NCBI GenBank assembly: GCA_964645795.1
Contig: CAZYCL010000001.1
Coordinates: 31,194 to 95,193, forward strand
DNA: 64,000 nt
From: an uncultured Planctomycetales bacterium
GTDB lineage: Bacteria; Omnitrophota; Gorgyraeia; Gygaellales; Profunditerraquicolaceae
Reading direction: 5' to 3'
Shown: positions 3,568-45,079 of the stretch, piece by piece
Numbering within the stretch: the stretch's first letter is position 1
How the letters are laid out: every line of letters begins with the position of its first letter
Notes under the pieces: model-generated
Databases searched by the model: none
Seen by the model: the letters and a program-made list of their open reading frames with translations, nothing else
Told to the model about the DNA's origin: nothing
Made by a program: the position numbers and the translations under genes

Positions 3568-4806
3568 TTAACCACCCCCCATTTTGGCGATCTGGAATAT
3601 GGGCAAAAACATACCCACAACCATGATGCCGATGACCGACCCCATAAATATAAGGATAAAAGGCTCAAACATCGAGACGAACCGGTTAAGGAAGGTCTCG
3701 GAATACTCCTGGTAAAAAGCGTTGATCTTCTTGAACATCTGCGAGAGCTCTCCGATCTCCTCTCCGATGCCCACCATCTGGACGACCATCGGGTCAAAGA
3801 ACCCGCTTTTTGAAAAAGGCTCGATCAGGGGCTTGCCTTCCCTTATCCCTTCCTTGATCTGGCGGATGATATCGGCCATGGCAAGATTTCCCACGCTATG
3901 CTCCGAGATCTCAAGCGAATAAAGGATAGGCACGCCGCTTTCCAGGAGCGTGGCCATCTCTGAAGAAAACCGCTCGACGGTAAGGGAGCGGAAGAACTCG
4001 CCGAATACCGGCAGCTTGAACTCCAAGCGCTCCAGCTGCTTTCTGCCTTCTTTTGTCTTGAGGAAGTTTTTCAGCAGGAACCCGAGTACTATTGCGCCGA
4101 ATATTAGCAGGATGAAGTTTTTGCGCAGAAAATCGCTGACGAATATCAAAACGACCGTGAGAGGCGGCAGTTGGATATTCATTCCCTTGAATATTTCGGC
4201 AAACGCCGGAACGATCTTGATGGTCATGAACAACATCGCGCCCAAGCTGGCTAACAACAGGATCGCCGGATATATGAGCGATGAGATTATCTTGGCCTTG
4301 AAGGCGGCGTTCCTCTCAAGATAGCCGGCCAGGCGGTTTAAGACTACCGCCAGGTTCCCGCTGGCCTCACCGCTTTCCACCAGATTAATCCAGAGCTCCG
4401 AGAAGACATCGCGGTGCCTGGCCATAGCCTCATGAAAACTAAGGCCGGTTTCCATGCCTTTCTGCAAATCCTTGACCACTAAATAGAGCTTGCGGCTGGA
4501 AACCTGCTGAGAGATTATATCCAGGCTCTTTAAGATGGTAACTCCGGCTCCCAACAGAGTGGCAAGCTGACGGCAAAAAAGGACCAGATCGTTGCCTGTG
4601 ACGCGGCTATGTCCGCGCTTATGCCTTGAGCTGAAATCCGCTGCGGCCTTAGAGGGCTTAACTTCGTCCTGGGCGGAAGTAACGCTTACCACGACCAAGT
4701 CCCTGGACTGAAGCCTGCTGATGACCTCTTCCTGGCTGGCGGCCTCTTCAGTGCCGGTGCTTTTCTCGCCTGTCTTGCTGCGGACCGTATAAAAGAACTT
4801 GGCCAT
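3568..4806 (-). CDS. pilC: Type IV pilus inner-membrane platform protein PilC (GspF family)
   Basis: 412 aa with two T2SSF-like repeats and three TM segments. It lies between pilB and the pilin genes. Confidence 0.85.
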   Translation of the reverse strand: MAKFFYTVRSKTGEKSTGTEEAASQEEVISRLQSRDLVVVSVTSAQDEVKPSKAAADFSSRHKRGHSRVTGNDLVLFCRQLATLLGAGVTILKSLDIISQQVSSRKLYLVVKDLQKGMETGLSFHEAMARHRDVFSELWINLVESGEASGNLAVVLNRLAGYLERNAAFKAKIISSLIYPAILLLASLGAMLFMTIKIVPAFAEIFKGMNIQLPPLTVVLIFVSDFLRKNFILLIFGAIVLGFLLKNFLKTKEGRKQLERLEFKLPVFGEFFRSLTVERFSSEMATLLESGVPILYSLEISEHSVGNLAMADIIRQIKEGIREGKPLIEPFSKSGFFDPMVVQMVGIGEEIGELSQMFKKINAFYQEYSETFLNRFVSMFEPFILIFMGSVIGIMVVGMFLPIFQIAKMGGG

Positions 4807-33216: not shown

Positions 33217-33624
33217 TTACTTCTTATTGGTATTTGAGGAGACCTCAAAAGACAGCTTTGTGAAATCTCCTTTATTATTGGCTATCTTAAAGGAGTTCTT
33301 GGAGAAGGTCCCGTCTTTATTGGCGATGGTGAAGGAGTTCTTGGAGAAGGTCCCGTCGTTATTGACTATGGAAAAGGAGTTCCGGGAAAACTCTCCTTTG
33401 GTATCGGCTATGGTAAACGAATTCTTGGAAAACTCGTTGGTGCCGGATTTAACCGAAAAGGAAGGCTTTAGCGATATCGAAGGCTTGACTGAAAAGGAAG
33501 GCTTGACCGAAAAAGATAATTCGGTAAACTCTCCCGTGGCAAAAGCCGCTGCCCCTGATAGCCATAAAATCAGCGCTGTGAATATGAGAAAAGAGAGGAA
33601 TTTGCCCATAGTTAAAGATATCAC
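33217..33624 (-). CDS. Secreted tandem-repeat protein (signal peptide, PSFSVK x3, then a 14-aa unit G-x-FSKNSFxIAN-x-D x4)
   Basis: Signal peptide with an AFA-TGE cleavage site. There is a 42-bp DNA-level tandem repeat. The antisense ORF lacks a signal peptide and would be the lone plus-strand gene here. Confidence 0.5.
   Translation of the reverse strand: MISLTMGKFLSFLIFTALILWLSGAAAFATGEFTELSFSVKPSFSVKPSISLKPSFSVKSGTNEFSKNSFTIADTKGEFSRNSFSIVNNDGTFSKNSFTIANKDGTFSKNSFKIANNKGDFTKLSFEVSSNTNKK
33245..33420. repeat. 42-bp tandem repeat array (about 4 units) encoding the 14-aa protein repeat
   Basis: Units at 33290-33331 and 33332-33373 are near-identical. Flanking units are degenerate. Confidence 0.7.
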
Positions 33625-33658
33625 GCCAAGACAAAAATTGCAACATTCTTTGAGGATT

Positions 33659-33695
33659 GGGGACGGTTCTGGGACCTGTCCCCGGAACCGTCCCC
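33659..33695. repeat. GC-rich 11-bp perfect inverted repeat (GGGGACGGTTC ... GAACCGTCCCC) with a nested sub-hairpin
   Basis: It lies between the propeller-protein stop and the repeat-protein start. No U-tract follows it. Confidence 0.5.
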
Positions 33696-33699
33696 GATC

Positions 33700-35292
33700 C
33701 TAATTCTTGATGGAGCTGGAGAAGTAGCCGCCGGTCATGGCGTCAAGCAGGGCGGTCAGCTCCCGTATCCCCAACTCCTTATCAAGCCGTTTTTTCCTAT
33801 CCTCTATCGGCAGATTCAAAAGTTCGATCTTACGCCTGATCCTTTCAAAATATATCTTGGTCACTTCATCAAGGATGTCCTCGCGTAACTGCACCATGAG
33901 CCGCGACCGTGTATCTATTGAGGTCTGGTCGTTATTCCAGATGATATCTCCCAACTCCCAACTTATGGCTATATCCCAATCGACGCTTTCTTTTCCGCGC
34001 CTTAGCAGATCGTCTTCGCCCTTGGTAGTCGATCCCGTCTCCCAATGCCAAAGGTCCGTTGTGTTTCGGTCCAACCCGACACTTAAACGCGGCAGCAATG
34101 CTTTTCGGCAAGCCTGCCTCCTCCATTTAGCGATCTTCTCCGGCTCAACTTCCGCATATTTCATGGCGGCCCTGTGCACCTCATTTATAGACGGCTCTCC
34201 CTGACAATAAAACTCCAGCGCCGAATATTCGTGCATCGTATCAGCAAAGCTGCGGCTTGCGAAAAACAACCCTTGATCCGTAGCCAGATATATACCTGAG
34301 GCCTCATCAAAAGCTATCGCGTTATACTTCTTAGACATCACTTCGATTGATAACTCCTGCCACCGGTCAGATATGAACATGAATACACCGGATCCCGAAA
34401 GGCTGTAAAGGACACCCTGTTTGGATATTGCAAGAGCCTTAATATCCCGCGAAAGCAATCCTCTCATTGTCAAGCCTTCCCAGCTTTCTGCGCCGTTCTG
34501 AGTAAAATACAGTCCCCTGTTCGTGGCTAAATATAAAAACCCGGGCAAGAACGGATGTTGCGATATCGCAGTTATGCCGAAAGAACCGTCTTTTTCCATA
34601 TCGATATCGCCGTCGTAGTTGTCCTCGATCTCTACAGCGTCATTTTCAGCTGCAGATGATGCAAAGAATACCTTTATGGGCCCAAAGCCTGCTTCCTGAG
34701 AAATGCTGAAAACCCCTTCACGGCTTGCCACAAACACTTGTTTTCGCAAACGGGAAGAAACGCATATATCGATTATCGGGGATTCTCCAAGGGCTCCTTC
34801 GATCCTCCTCCAATGCCTGCCTTCATTCAAGCTCACGAACAATCCTGCCCGCGTGCCTAAATAAAGCCTGCCTTCGCAAGAAGCGAATGCGGTCGCGCTC
34901 TGCCGGGGGGTCCAGCCGCCCCTGAATATCCTCTTCCATGAATCTCCCCGGTCAGAGGTAACGAATATGCCTTTTTCGCTGGCCGCGTAAATTTTTTCTG
35001 CGCCGGGTCCGGGTTCGACCAGCAACCTGATAAACCCGCCAGGCGATCTGCTGCGCAAAGAGATATCCCATGTTTTTCCCCGGTCTATGCTCTTATATAC
35101 TCCGTCTTCGCAGCCGATATAAAGGTCATCTTGACCGGTCAAAAGCACTGATTTTACCCCGTTTTTTACGGTGAATACCCTCTTCCACTCAATCTCCTCA
35201 GACAACCCGCTTTTTACAGAAAAAATACCCGATGATATCAAAAACGCAACAAACGTCAAAACCCCGGATAAACGCATATTTCCTCCTTTCAA
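33700..35292 (-). CDS. Secreted BNR/Asp-box-like beta-propeller protein with a C-terminal helical domain
   Basis: It has a signal peptide and repeated S-x-D-x-G-x-(T/S)-W-like motifs (SIDRGKTWD, TSDRGDSW, SLNEGRHW, TQNGAESW). Confidence 0.55.
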   Translation of the reverse strand: MKGGNMRLSGVLTFVAFLISSGIFSVKSGLSEEIEWKRVFTVKNGVKSVLLTGQDDLYIGCEDGVYKSIDRGKTWDISLRSRSPGGFIRLLVEPGPGAEKIYAASEKGIFVTSDRGDSWKRIFRGGWTPRQSATAFASCEGRLYLGTRAGLFVSLNEGRHWRRIEGALGESPIIDICVSSRLRKQVFVASREGVFSISQEAGFGPIKVFFASSAAENDAVEIEDNYDGDIDMEKDGSFGITAISQHPFLPGFLYLATNRGLYFTQNGAESWEGLTMRGLLSRDIKALAISKQGVLYSLSGSGVFMFISDRWQELSIEVMSKKYNAIAFDEASGIYLATDQGLFFASRSFADTMHEYSALEFYCQGEPSINEVHRAAMKYAEVEPEKIAKWRRQACRKALLPRLSVGLDRNTTDLWHWETGSTTKGEDDLLRRGKESVDWDIAISWELGDIIWNNDQTSIDTRSRLMVQLREDILDEVTKIYFERIRRKIELLNLPIEDRKKRLDKELGIRELTALLDAMTGGYFSSSIKN

Positions 35293-41367: not shown

Positions 41368-41877
41368 CTAAAACCTCTCCCAATGCAATAATTCTGCCAG
41401 CGGCTTTTTATCCTTATGCGAAGGCCCGGCTGCATCAGGGTAGCCGAGCGCGATGAGGCTTACAAGCTTAAGCCTCGCTGGCGCAGCCACAAGGGCTGAG
41501 ACCCTTGAGCAGTAATCCTTCTTATCCCCGGCTATCCAGCAGGAACCGACCCCCAGCGCCTGAGCCGCCAGCAGGATGTTCTGGGTGGCTGCCGAGCCGT
41601 CTTCCAAGTAATACTTGGTGTCATCGCAAAAAACCATGACACAGGCAGCAGCCCCGGAAACGAACCTGCCGTTCTCGGCGAGCCCGGAGATCTCTGACAT
41701 CACCTTTTTATCCGTCACCGCCACAAACTGCCAGGGCTGGACATTCCTGGCGGTAGGGGCCAAACGCCCCGCATCGCAGATCTGCTCCAGAACGTCTTTG
41801 GGGATTGGCTTATCTTTAAAACTGCGGCTGCTGCATCTTTTCCTGATCGCCTCCAAAGCATCCATTATCCCTGCCAC
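41368..41877 (-). CDS. Nitroreductase family protein
   Basis: RCSSRSF...PTARNVQPWQFV signature. Confidence 0.8.
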   Translation of the reverse strand: MAGIMDALEAIRKRCSSRSFKDKPIPKDVLEQICDAGRLAPTARNVQPWQFVAVTDKKVMSEISGLAENGRFVSGAAACVMVFCDDTKYYLEDGSAATQNILLAAQALGVGSCWIAGDKKDYCSRVSALVAAPARLKLVSLIALGYPDAAGPSHKDKKPLAELLHWERF

Positions 41878-42248
41878 CTCTCTTTCAGCTTCTCATCCAG
41901 GGCTTGAGGCTTCAAACTCCTATCTACGCAGACCATGGTAGTCTTTGCCCTGACAATAAGCTTGCCGTGCTGATTGGTTATCTCGTGCTCAAACTCTATG
42001 CGTACGCTCGTCATATTGGCTATGCGCACGCTTACCTCCAATGTATCTCCGTATAAAGCAGGCGCCTTATAATCAACCTCCTGACGCGCCACCACAAACA
42101 ACGTCCCGCTATCCGCCAACTCCTTTACCGGCGTGCCCCTTTCAGCGAAAAACTCAGTGCGCGCTTCTTCCAGGTATTTAAGATAATTGGCATAGTAAAC
42201 CACTCCCCCGCAATCGGTATCGTGGTAATAGATACTTATCTTCATCAT
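41865..42248 (-). CDS. Acyl-CoA thioesterase (YbgC/4HBT hotdog fold)
   Basis: YYHDTDCGGVVYYANYLKYLEEAR N-terminus. Confidence 0.8.
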   Translation of the reverse strand: MMKISIYYHDTDCGGVVYYANYLKYLEEARTEFFAERGTPVKELADSGTLFVVARQEVDYKAPALYGDTLEVSVRIANMTSVRIEFEHEITNQHGKLIVRAKTTMVCVDRSLKPQALDEKLKERWQG

Positions 42249-42397
42249 CCCTCCCGATGCTGTATTATATAGCTATTTGGAAAATAATCAAGCTTGGAGA
42301 AATGCAAAACTCCTCATATCTGACGGTGCAATAACGGGATGGGTTACTTAACCCCTTGATATAAAGAAAGTTGCGAACATTTTCCATATAAATCATA

Positions 42398-42425
42398 TTG
42401 ACAAAATCCGCCCGGACGCTATAAT
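42398..42425 (+). promoter_or_regulatory. Near-consensus sigma70 promoter (TTGACA-16-TATAAT)
   Basis: TTGACAaaatccgcccggacgcTATAAT lies about 165 nt upstream of the 42589 start codon. Confidence 0.55.
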
Positions 42426-42500
42426 TAGATTAACCAAATGACATAGCAATTTCGAATGGCGTGAAAATCTCATATTCGATCCCGCAATGCATTTGTTCAT

Positions 42501-42531
42501 CCCCGCTGTTAATGGCGGGGTTTTCCTTTTT
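42501..42531 (+). promoter_or_regulatory. Intrinsic terminator within a 5' leader (CCCCGC-TGTTAATG-GCGGGG plus TTTTCCTTTTT), a candidate attenuator or riboswitch expression platform
   Basis: A perfect 6-bp GC stem is followed by a plus-strand U-tract. It lies between the promoter and the SD/ATG of the 753-aa gene. No plus-strand gene lies upstream of it. Confidence 0.5.
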
Positions 42532-42588
42532 AAAAGCATTGATCCGGCAAGTTAATCGTAAAATAAACACATTCGGCAGCCAAAGGCG

Positions 42589-44850
42589 ATGAAAGAGGAT
42601 ATTTTTACATTTGCCAGGAACATAATAACGCTCCTGCCCGGTGCGCCTGATGATCCTGCCTTCCGGCAAACCGCAAACTCTTTTATCTTGCTGCTTCAAG
42701 CGGATGCGCAAATAAAGAAAAAGGTCTTTGGTTTATCGCCGGCCGCGGACGAAACAGCGTTCAAGAATAAAATCCTCCCCTTTTTCGAAGAACAAACCGG
42801 GATTAAAAAGACCCCTTTATCTGAGGAAATACTGCGGTTCCTGGCCTGTGCAGCTGCATATATCATCGTATTCTGCGACACTCAAACCTGCGCAATAGAA
42901 AGATTCCTCTTTATCGAGAATGCGGCTTTGGGCAATAAAAACAATTACTACCTGCAAAACGCCATTAAGGAGGTAACCGGCGTCCTTTCGGATATGTCTT
43001 CGAAGAATTTCATAATTAATGAATCCAGCCGCTCCGAGAAGCTCTCGCCGGTCTTAACATACCTTCCAAGGATCCATATGCGCTCCCCTATTAACGCCCA
43101 CCTTTCATATTTATCGGTAACCCGCGATGGATACCACGATTCTGTATTTTTTCCAGAGAAAATATCGGAAAAGGATGAGGTTGAATATTTAAAAGCATTT
43201 TATGATTTTGCCGACTTCTACCCAAAAATAGAGCTGTGGAAAGAATCTGCCTGCCTGGCAGCGGTTAAAGTTGCCTTTAGGATCATCAAAGATTCGCCCG
43301 GGAAGAATTTAAAGCTGCTGAAGAGGCGCATGGATATGATTTGCAAAAAAGATGCTGGCTACTTAAAGGTCTGGAGGCAGATTGAAAATATGCAACCGGA
43401 CATGATCGCCGGTAAGTTCGGCTTTGAATCATTAAAGATAAGGGAATTAAAGACCGTGCTTGATTTCTGCTTGCTGCTTATAGCTGTGGCATTGTGGTCC
43501 GCAGGCGGGCCCCGCATGCAGTCAACCGCAAGGCGCACGATAGAAAGATTCCGGCAGAAGTATAAAAACAATTCCTCGATTATCAAAAAAACGGCTTTAT
43601 GCCTGCTCTCCATGGATTTCGCTTTCATGCAAAATAACGCAATCGGGGCATTAATGCACGATGAACACCGCTCAATACTCAATGCGCTCAAAGCCATCAA
43701 CCCTGAAACTCATGTCCGGCCTCTTGTCGGACTGCAGCCGTGGGCCAGAGACAGCTTTGCGTGGCTTGATGAAGAGTTCCGCCTGTTTCTGCAACCCAGC
43801 CTCGGGAATTTGCAAAAGATCAACTACCGCGGGAATCTTACCGAAGGAGGTAATATCGTCTTCGGTACCGCGAAGGGAAAATTTATACTGGTATCAAGAG
43901 AATCGTCTAAAGATGAAATTGAGCTCATCCAGCTCTACCTGGAAACTAGAAATCGGCGAATACAGATGTACGTCTTGCCCGGCGGCTTTACCTGGACAAG
44001 AAACACGCGCACAAAAGAAGATATTATCCTGAACTCCAGCCATATAGACTCGGTGATCAATATTGTCCCCTCCGGCTGCACGATGGACAACAGAATTAAG
44101 GTTATCGTCGACCCGCATTACTATGGCATGGTAAAAGAGGAGCCAGAATTCAGCCGTTTTATCAGGGAGCAGGAAATTTGGCCTGAAGACGTGGTCATAA
44201 TTGACGAAAGGGAAAAATATCTCAACCTTGCGAATTTTAGCATTGTCATTGACCAAAAAAACCGAAAAATGGCCCTATTCAACAATGACAAGGGGTATAC
44301 CCTGCACCGCCTGAAAATTAAAAAAGAGTGCCTCTTTAAAACAGGCATTGAAATTACCAACATATCGGCGTTCAACGGCAGCATCCGCTGCGTTACTAAT
44401 GTCTTCCCTTCCTCTCAGCTCAAAAATGAAGGGCAGCTCTTAATTGCCGTAGGCGCCGGAATACCCCAGGAATCGGAAGCGCGAATACTGGCCCTTTTCG
44501 CCGATAAGAAACACCTGCTAAAACATCTCAAGCGCTCATGGATATCGTGTTTATTTATTCGCCATTATACTGGGAAAAGCTACTCTGAATTCGACGGCTT
44601 GAGCCTGACCTTATTGATCGGCCTTAACAGAAGCGACCTTGACAACCCTGAACGCGCACGTATTTTCATTGAGCGCAACATCAACCGTTACTGCTCTCAC
44701 TTAAAAAGGAAAATGGGAGTATCATCTTGCGGGGAAACCATAACCGACGCCCCATCCGCCTCCCCTGGAATCGATTGTTTTATACGGCGCGGCTCAGGGC
44801 AAACAATAAGCTATGATGAGTTCATCTCCATGCCTCAGGGAAAACCCTGA
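42589..44850 (+). CDS. Large hypothetical protein with a ~380-aa N-terminal domain of unknown function and a C-terminal agmatine deiminase/PAD_porph-like guanidino-modifying domain
   Basis: 753 aa with a good SD (AAAGAGGA). The C-terminal half carries W-A-R-D-S, TEGGNIVFG and a terminal NGSIRCVTN motif. In agmatine deiminase/PAD-type enzymes the corresponding motifs are WxRD, EGG(S/N)I..DG and GGGNIHCIT with the Cys nucleophile. Confidence 0.6.
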   Translation: MKEDIFTFARNIITLLPGAPDDPAFRQTANSFILLLQADAQIKKKVFGLSPAADETAFKNKILPFFEEQTGIKKTPLSEEILRFLACAAAYIIVFCDTQTCAIERFLFIENAALGNKNNYYLQNAIKEVTGVLSDMSSKNFIINESSRSEKLSPVLTYLPRIHMRSPINAHLSYLSVTRDGYHDSVFFPEKISEKDEVEYLKAFYDFADFYPKIELWKESACLAAVKVAFRIIKDSPGKNLKLLKRRMDMICKKDAGYLKVWRQIENMQPDMIAGKFGFESLKIRELKTVLDFCLLLIAVALWSAGGPRMQSTARRTIERFRQKYKNNSSIIKKTALCLLSMDFAFMQNNAIGALMHDEHRSILNALKAINPETHVRPLVGLQPWARDSFAWLDEEFRLFLQPSLGNLQKINYRGNLTEGGNIVFGTAKGKFILVSRESSKDEIELIQLYLETRNRRIQMYVLPGGFTWTRNTRTKEDIILNSSHIDSVINIVPSGCTMDNRIKVIVDPHYYGMVKEEPEFSRFIREQEIWPEDVVIIDEREKYLNLANFSIVIDQKNRKMALFNNDKGYTLHRLKIKKECLFKTGIEITNISAFNGSIRCVTNVFPSSQLKNEGQLLIAVGAGIPQESEARILALFADKKHLLKHLKRSWISCLFIRHYTGKSYSEFDGLSLTLLIGLNRSDLDNPERARIFIERNINRYCSHLKRKMGVSSCGETITDAPSASPGIDCFIRRGSGQTISYDEFISMPQGKP

Positions 44851-44926
44851 CGCATGAATGATCGCACATATTTCTTGAAATAAAATCCATGTCGGGATAG
44901 AATATAGGCTACGAAAGGGAGCGGAT

Positions 44927-45079
44927 ATGGAAGAAAACAATCCTGTTCTGGAAAAAAAGCTTCAGGAAATTGACCAGCGCATTGACAAAAAGTTTGAGCC
45001 TTTTAAGGAACAGCCGATCATGCAGCATATCGCTGGGCTTGCAAAAGACTATCTTAAGAAAAAGATAAAACTATCCTGA
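44927..45079 (+). CDS. Small ORF (50 aa, charged/helical), absent from the ORF track
   Basis: It has a strong SD (AAAGGGAG) 7 nt upstream of the ATG. Its stop lies 4 nt before the HDOD gene ATG, which suggests translational coupling. Confidence 0.4.
   Translation: MEENNPVLEKKLQEIDQRIDKKFEPFKEQPIMQHIAGLAKDYLKKKIKLS

Follow-up and report, generated by a model that had tools for sequence, protein, structure and literature searches.

A predicted premature intrinsic terminator behind a consensus promoter in the leader of an inserted gene of an uncultured Omnitrophota species

The premature 5′-leader terminators and attenuators catalogued by Term-seq consist of a promoter, a structured leader, a G+C-rich hairpin with a U-tract, and an open reading frame whose expression depends on read-through. 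In classical attenuators and riboswitches, the leader also holds either an antiterminator that overlaps the 5′ arm of the terminator or a leader peptide with its own Shine-Dalgarno sequence (SD). The dfn and mln leaders of Bacillus velezensis are built differently: a small hairpin is followed by an intrinsic terminator, there is no RNA-encoded antiterminator, and read-through is set by the protein factor LoaP, for whose action in the dfn leader the small hairpin is essential (PMC12691694). A terminator also separates the two products of the type III toxin-antitoxin systems ToxIN, CptIN and TenpIN (PMC3401426) and of the AbiF-RCd22 pair (PMC12373285), in which a promoter, a non-coding RNA, a terminator and a gene reached by read-through make up a compact, probably mobile cassette. 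The locus described here has the promoter, structured leader, hairpin with U-tract and read-through-dependent reading frame of the Term-seq-catalogued leaders; however, it differs from the classical attenuators and riboswitches in having neither an overlapping antiterminator nor an SD-bearing leader peptide. With the guanidine riboswitches (ykkC, mini-ykkC, ykkC-III and mepA) it shares only the presence of a terminator in the 5′ leader, whereas no covariance model of these classes matches it at E<=10 and the encoded protein belongs to no detectable guanidine or arginine family.

The locus lies within a 64,000-nt stretch of DNA, all of which was analyzed and which we call the window. On its plus strand, a preliminary description had placed a TTGACA-16-TATAAT promoter at 42398-42425, and this assignment was borne out: the site matches the sigma-70 consensus at 12 of 12 positions, with the -35 hexamer TTGACA at 42398-42403, the -10 hexamer TATAAT at 42420-42425 and a spacer of 16 nt, so placed that transcription would be expected to start at A42432/33. 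When sigma-70 promoters were defined as TTGACA and TATAAT hexamers 16-18 nt apart and facing a gene, the site qualified; two such 12/12 matches occur in the window, against 0.03 expected (the mean of block-shuffled sequence), and both face a gene. The second of them, at 52682-52655 on the minus strand, has a 16-nt spacer and a TG extension and lies about 60 nt 5′ of a gene for a 1901-aa coiled-coil/TPR protein.

The leader downstream of the promoter contains an intrinsic terminator (42501-42531, plus strand) with the three features by which we defined such elements, namely a G+C-rich stem, a short loop and a U-tract that follows at once on the transcribed strand. The hairpin CCCCGCTG-TTAA-TGGCGGGG occupies 42501-42520, and TTTTCCTTTTT stands directly 3′ of it at 42521-42531. 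Its stem comprises six G-C pairs and a U-G pair, after which comes UUUUCCUUUUU. These seven pairs are stable, the G-C pairs reaching probabilities of 0.98-1.0 when the ensemble was computed for the 100-nt transcript, while an eighth, closing G-U pair is marginal (p 0.23); the predicted free energy of the hairpin is -12.7 kcal/mol. The U-tract opens with four U residues and has nine U in the next 11 nt, with an interruption by CC. Both the hairpin with its U-tract and the spacings given in the preliminary description could be confirmed: the hairpin begins about 70 nt from the expected start, and the U-tract ends 57 nt 5′ of the ATG at 42589. The element is unidirectional, as the minus strand has no T-run, and no second copy of the hairpin is present in the window. 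Terminators of the same type stand at real gene ends, at 22080-22052 on the minus strand, 19 nt past a stop codon, and at 35356-35327 on the minus strand, so that the organism evidently uses them. Comparable sites number only two or three in 64 kb, and the others are at gene ends. It was also correctly noted before that there is no upstream plus-strand gene that this terminator could serve, the upstream neighbor being a thioesterase gene on the minus strand (41865-42245).

The gene that follows encodes a protein of 753 aa (42589-44850, plus strand). To place its leader in context, we fetched six homologous loci (L002-L005, L027 and L028), whose proteins are 30-37% identical to it. A 12/12 TTGACA-16-TATAAT promoter was found in L002 (37%) at 3906-3933, 68 nt 5′ of the ATG, followed by an unstructured leader without a terminator. 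An 11/12 promoter, TTGACA-16-TATTAT, is present in L027 (36%) at 1447-1474, 93 nt 5′ of the ATG and in the same TTGACAAAAT context as in the window, again with no canonical terminator. The context TTGACAA(A/T) and the 16-nt spacing are thus common to the promoters of the window, L002 and L027; the start codons of the L002 and L027 homologues lack an SD, and the gene contexts are unrelated. The loci L003-L005, which come from Fibrobacterota/Chitinivibrionales MAGs (30-35%), have neither the promoter nor a leader terminator. In L028, the family member (P0006) stands directly after a tRNA-Leu(GAG) gene and that gene's own terminator (L028 2381-2512). Genes for tRNAs are typical integration sites, and this position would fit mobility of the 753-aa family. 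None of the six loci has a leader terminator 3′ of its own promoter. Judged from these sequences, a near-consensus promoter recurs within the gene family, and only the window has a leader terminator.

Because near-consensus promoters with 16-nt spacers also precede the homologues in L002 and L027, the comparison indicates that the promoter at 42398-42425 is that of the 753-aa gene itself, which would place the terminator within that gene's leader, as a premature one. Between the terminator and the ATG no recognizable sigma-70-like promoter was found: the sole -10-like hexamer in this interval, TAAAAT at 42559, has no TG extension and is accompanied, at spacings of 15-19 nt, by at most one of the six -35 positions. 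On this reading of the sequence the 753-aa gene must depend on read-through of the terminator for its expression. Both the promoter and the terminator presumably work in vivo.

Promoter, leader, terminator and gene together make up an insertion of about 2.6 kb (42296-44866, plus strand). It is bordered in the window by the promoter block of the thioesterase gene (...TATTATA...AATCAAG, 42261-42295) and by that of an operon encoding an HDOD protein (TTGAAA...TA(A/G)AAT, 44869-44903), and the same two blocks lie 9-48 nt apart, with the insertion absent, in L020 and L030. In L020 (thioesterase and HDOD protein each 73% identical), the thioesterase gene and an operon of a small open reading frame, the HDOD gene and a 294-aa gene are divergent and 150 nt apart, and in L030 (HDOD protein 69% identical) about 9 nt separate the two promoter blocks. 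Since the divergent promoters are thus adjacent in two related Omnitrophota species, we regard the unit between them in the window as a lineage-specific insertion. The closest thioesterase homologues, which place the organism in Candidatus Omnitrophota, are 60-73% identical, several of them being named Omnitrophica or Omnitrophota; of the loci reached through these homologues, three (L021, L029 and the P0054 contig) showed no upstream synteny. The insertion includes 100 nt 5′ of the promoter, its other end lies no more than about 16 nt from the stop codon of the 753-aa gene, and no flanking repeats were found around it. With a GC content of 0.453 it is slightly below the window as a whole (0.492), and the GC3 of the 753-aa gene is the lowest of 10 genes tested. 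It appears most likely that the cassette was inserted horizontally, that this was recent and that the gene is foreign.

We then considered how the leader folds. The RNA that starts at A42432/33 is predicted to form three independent modules, namely hairpin 1, the terminator and a start-codon hairpin, with gaps of 5 nt between the first two and 9 nt between the last two. Hairpin 1 (42435-42495, plus strand; 61 nt) has an imperfect stem of 21 bp, which is interrupted by internal loops and capped by an apical loop of AAAUC. Taken alone it has a minimum free energy (MFE) of -16.4 kcal/mol (z = -2.4), it adopts the same fold in all predictions, with or without the terminator, and the two together reach -29.8 kcal/mol (z = -3.75). 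Neither constrained nor suboptimal folding gave the 5′ arm of the terminator an upstream partner. When the terminator pairing was forbidden, the 5′ arm was left unpaired at a cost of 11-13 kcal/mol, and all suboptimal folds within 7 kcal/mol retained the terminator. Reading of the sequence agrees with this: a partner for the 5′ arm would need GGGG, which the leader has nowhere but in the 3′ arm of the terminator itself. The preliminary description had pointed to a CCCGC at 42481 that could pair alternatively with the 3′ arm. The motif is there; it does not qualify as an antiterminator, however, because its pairing with the 3′ arm still gives a hairpin, with a larger loop, in front of the same U-tract. 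The mutually exclusive terminator and antiterminator folds that mark a riboswitch or an RNA-encoded attenuator were accordingly not found among the predicted structures.

Ribosome-mediated attenuation would call for a short upstream open reading frame with its own SD. The leader contains four short upstream frames, starting at ATG 42438 (2 codons), ATG 42456 (2 codons), ATG 42487 (22 codons) and GTG 42461 (43 codons), and on reading the sequence we found no SD-like sequence 5′ of any of them. The 43-codon frame (42461-42592), likewise without an SD, has an in-frame ATG at 42511 within the terminator loop, and its stop codon, TGA, shares bases with the main start codon (ATGA). An ATGA overlap is a layout typical of translational coupling.

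The third module, the start-codon hairpin (42540-42622, plus strand), encloses the AUG at 42589 together with a weak SD, AAGG, at 42583-42586. A strong SD had been described here, and we did not find one: AAGG is the only candidate, it ends 2 nt before the ATG, and it is both weak and badly spaced. The hairpin has an MFE of -20.2 kcal/mol (z = -2.9), a stability reached by 1 of 200 shuffled sequences; it recurs when folded in a 189-nt context, and it is predicted to pair the 5′ UTR with codons 4-12 of the 753-aa gene. From these models it is probably a translational brake.

The leader was also compared with known RNA families. A search of the whole window with Rfam 15 at the gathering score gave no hits. 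At E<=10, the region 42250-42750 gave only three noise matches, which scored 15-16 bits where the gathering thresholds are 40-55 bits. Two of these, the Pseudomonas rnk leader (15.9 bits) and the anti-hemB sRNA (15.2 bits), are on the transcribed strand and rest on the terminator stem, and the third is a snoRNA on the minus strand. The cmscan search that had been proposed for this leader therefore returned nothing beyond terminator-driven noise; guanidine-I to -IV, other riboswitch classes, the T-box and other leaders were without a match in 42250-42750 at the same threshold. Agmatine, arginine and guanidine, which had been suggested as ligands, have no basis in the protein, which matches no Pfam, NCBIfam or PDB family, and a link of the 753-aa gene to amidinotransferases or arginine could not be substantiated. 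Two further candidates were rejected: a MITE or other repeat element, since the 64 kb contain no further copy and flanking repeats were not found, and a tRNA-like or integration relic, as ARAGORN finds no tRNA in the window.

A covariance model built from the single leader sequence (R1) and run over the window and the six homologous loci found only itself, a scan across metagenomes for the pattern of the hairpin stems returned five chance matches without a promoter or terminator, and a scan of viral contigs returned none. No homologous leader was found in any sequence reached, and with the closest homologue of the protein at 37% identity neither alignment nor covariation was available. Same-species contigs from six further samples match the leader at 100% identity throughout and hence show no variation; the species is present in the metagenomes ERR14964780, ERR14964774, ERR4524290 and ERR4519285. 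The preliminary description had named a lack of conservation at orthologous loci as grounds for giving up its reading; no such conservation was found, but at 37% identity to the nearest homologue this is a weak test. Of that reading, the view of promoter, structured leader, terminator and gene as one unit stands, whereas the proposed riboswitch or other conditional termination found no Rfam match, no antiterminator fold and no homologous leader. Nothing suggests that the leader senses a metabolite.

These observations lead us to propose, with about even confidence, that the leader of the inserted cassette carries a default-on, leaky premature terminator that, together with the start-codon hairpin, damps the consensus promoter, the RNA of about 100 nt being a by-product. 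In this scheme, RNA polymerase would start at about 42432 from the consensus promoter, and the nascent RNA would fold as hairpin 1 (42435-42495). The terminator hairpin would form 5 nt further on, and most polymerases would release an RNA of about 90-100 nt at the U-tract (42521-42531). A minority would read through and yield the mRNA of the 753-aa protein, on which the SD would be weak and badly spaced and the AUG buried in a hairpin of -20 kcal/mol. No terminator was found between the 753-aa gene and the promoter of the HDOD operon, and read-through transcripts could thus continue into that operon, a run-on that the leader terminator may limit. The net effect of leaky termination and occluded translation initiation would be a constitutive brake on a very strong promoter. 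We infer termination as the default state and, likewise, the fraction of read-through. In favor of the proposal, the promoter and the terminator match their consensus far beyond chance, and neither an RNA-binding antiterminator nor a NusG paralogue was found among the 38 open reading frames of the window that were scanned. Against it, there seems to be waste in putting a constitutive brake after a perfect promoter, and premature-terminator arrangements behind strong promoters are often regulated. Moreover, the proposal gives no role to hairpin 1, which is stabler than chance both alone and with the terminator. On present evidence, the leader is a further example of a predicted premature intrinsic terminator, found in a single uncultured Omnitrophota species; with neither conservation nor a sign of a switch, it teaches little by itself. 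It may nevertheless be a case of a newly inserted gene that brings a consensus promoter and is held low by a leaky terminator and an occluded start codon.

The main rival, which we consider unlikely, is factor-dependent antitermination. Here hairpin 1 would bind a trans-acting protein (a NusG paralogue of the LoaP kind, an N/Q-like protein or another) or an RNA, and the polymerase would ignore the terminator under some condition, with no need of an RNA-encoded antiterminator. A stable hairpin directly 5′ of an autonomous terminator, in a gene with no promoter 3′ of that terminator, is what such a mechanism would require, and the layout resembles that of the LoaP-dependent dfn leader (PMC12691694). 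LoaP targets have a UNCG tetraloop, head long polyketide operons and have loaP nearby (PMC12691694), whereas the loop of hairpin 1 is AAAUC, a single gene follows, and the scanned open reading frames of the window include no NusG/KOW protein or other RNA-binding regulator. The single-gene insertion brought no regulator with it, and the hairpin and the terminator are both absent from the other family members.

Somewhat less probable still is that the RNA of about 100 nt is itself functional, either as a trans-acting sRNA or as a partner or antidote of the 753-aa protein, with the terminator setting the ratio of RNA to protein as it does in type III toxin-antitoxin systems and in AbiF/RCd22. A strong promoter, a structured RNA, a terminator and a protein gene in a compact mobile cassette are the architecture of type III systems (PMC3401426) and of RCd22-AbiF (PMC12373285), and the terminator here does stand between the RNA and the protein gene. 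Type III loci have tandem nucleotide repeats 5′ of the terminator (PMC3401426), whereas Tandem Repeats Finder (minimum score 30) gave 0 arrays in 42200-42700, and there is no abiF or other Rfam motif. The protein, at 753 aa, is unrelated to the endoRNase toxins of about 170-200 aa (ToxN, CptN and TenpN) and to AbiF (Abi_2); nothing in Pfam, NCBIfam, PADLOC or the PDB sequences matches it, and no PDB structure reached E<0.001 in a fold comparison that would link it to those toxins. As expected of a trans-acting sRNA, the RNA has its own promoter and its own terminator. Conservation independent of the gene would also be expected, yet the syntenic site of L020 and L030 lacks the RNA, as does the rest of the window, R1 finds only itself, and none of the other family members is preceded by an RNA and terminator of its own. 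Pairing of the RNA with the region of the gene start was no better than that of shuffled RNA (59 of 500 shuffles).

The nature of the protein bears on the same question. A word-index search with the 753-aa sequence found only itself, and HMMER, run in full against 1.84 billion cluster representatives, found about 50 relatives, all distant, the nearest of them 37% identical. The core of the family spans approximately residues 355-715, with invariant residues that include H485/D487, D534/D539/E542 and R600-C601, and it also occurs inside giant proteins of 2,000-7,600 aa from Omnitrophota and Fibrobacterota. Embedding in giant proteins is a context typical of effector and toxin domains. An AlphaFold (AF2) model built from 11 sequences has a pLDDT of 83.4 and a pTM of 0.83, and when it was compared by Foldseek with solved structures (PDB) and viral ones (BFVD), none matched at E<0.001; the top match, which is not significant, is the glucosyltransferase domain of TcdB (E = 0.1). 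The giant-protein context and the TcdB match both speak for a functional RNA. Even so, we think it improbable that the RNA is dedicated to the 753-aa protein as its partner, whether a type III-like or AbiF-like antidote or a regulator, or that it is the target of an antitermination factor. Such a role would make the cassette a new RNA-controlled effector or RNA-protein module.

It is equally improbable that the terminator has no function, the hairpin and U-tract being fortuitous or a relic of the insertion and terminating poorly in this organism. The leader is conserved in no relative and the U-tract is interrupted by CC, as such an origin would allow; yet a run of six G-C pairs that leads straight into four U, with nine U in the next 11 nt, is rare in 64 kb, and its placement between a perfect promoter and a gene would be hard to obtain by chance. 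A metabolite riboswitch of a new class, with hairpin 1 as aptamer and the terminator as expression platform, is the least credible reading and very improbable, since, although the predicted structure of the leader exceeds that of shuffled sequence and the downstream gene may encode an uncharacterized enzyme, no Rfam class down to E<=10 matches, the would-be aptamer is a plain bulged hairpin that neither overlaps the terminator nor offers a mutually exclusive fold, the CCCGC pairing leaves a hairpin before the U-tract, and a leader unique to one species, with no homologue found, provides no covariation.

Apart from the constitutive brake that we propose for its leader, the 753-aa protein may be the more interesting part of the cassette: it represents an uncharacterized family, its model is confident and matches no fold in PDB or BFVD, and its core domain recurs in giant proteins. 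Among contigs from other metagenomes that carry the flanking genes (L007-L011 and L015-L019), several end inside the 753-aa gene, at differing positions; low coverage or strain heterogeneity could account for these breaks.

Two smaller features of the window deserve mention. Downstream of the insertion, the promoter of the HDOD operon, TTGAAA-17-TAGAAT (44875-44903, plus strand), aligns with the promoters of L020 and L030 and precedes a 50-aa open reading frame (44927-45079) directly 5′ of the HDOD/HD gene. This frame is conserved at the protein level in the two Omnitrophota loci, L020 and L030. Because of this conservation, its strong SD and its own conserved promoter, it probably encodes a real small protein. 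Elsewhere, a 47-nt hairpin at 33654-33700, with a 20-bp stem that includes 13 G-C pairs and without a U-tract, starts 30 nt past the open reading frame 33217-33624 (minus strand), and its final base falls at the stop codon of a 530-aa gene (33700-35292, minus strand); it may be a REP-like or processing element.
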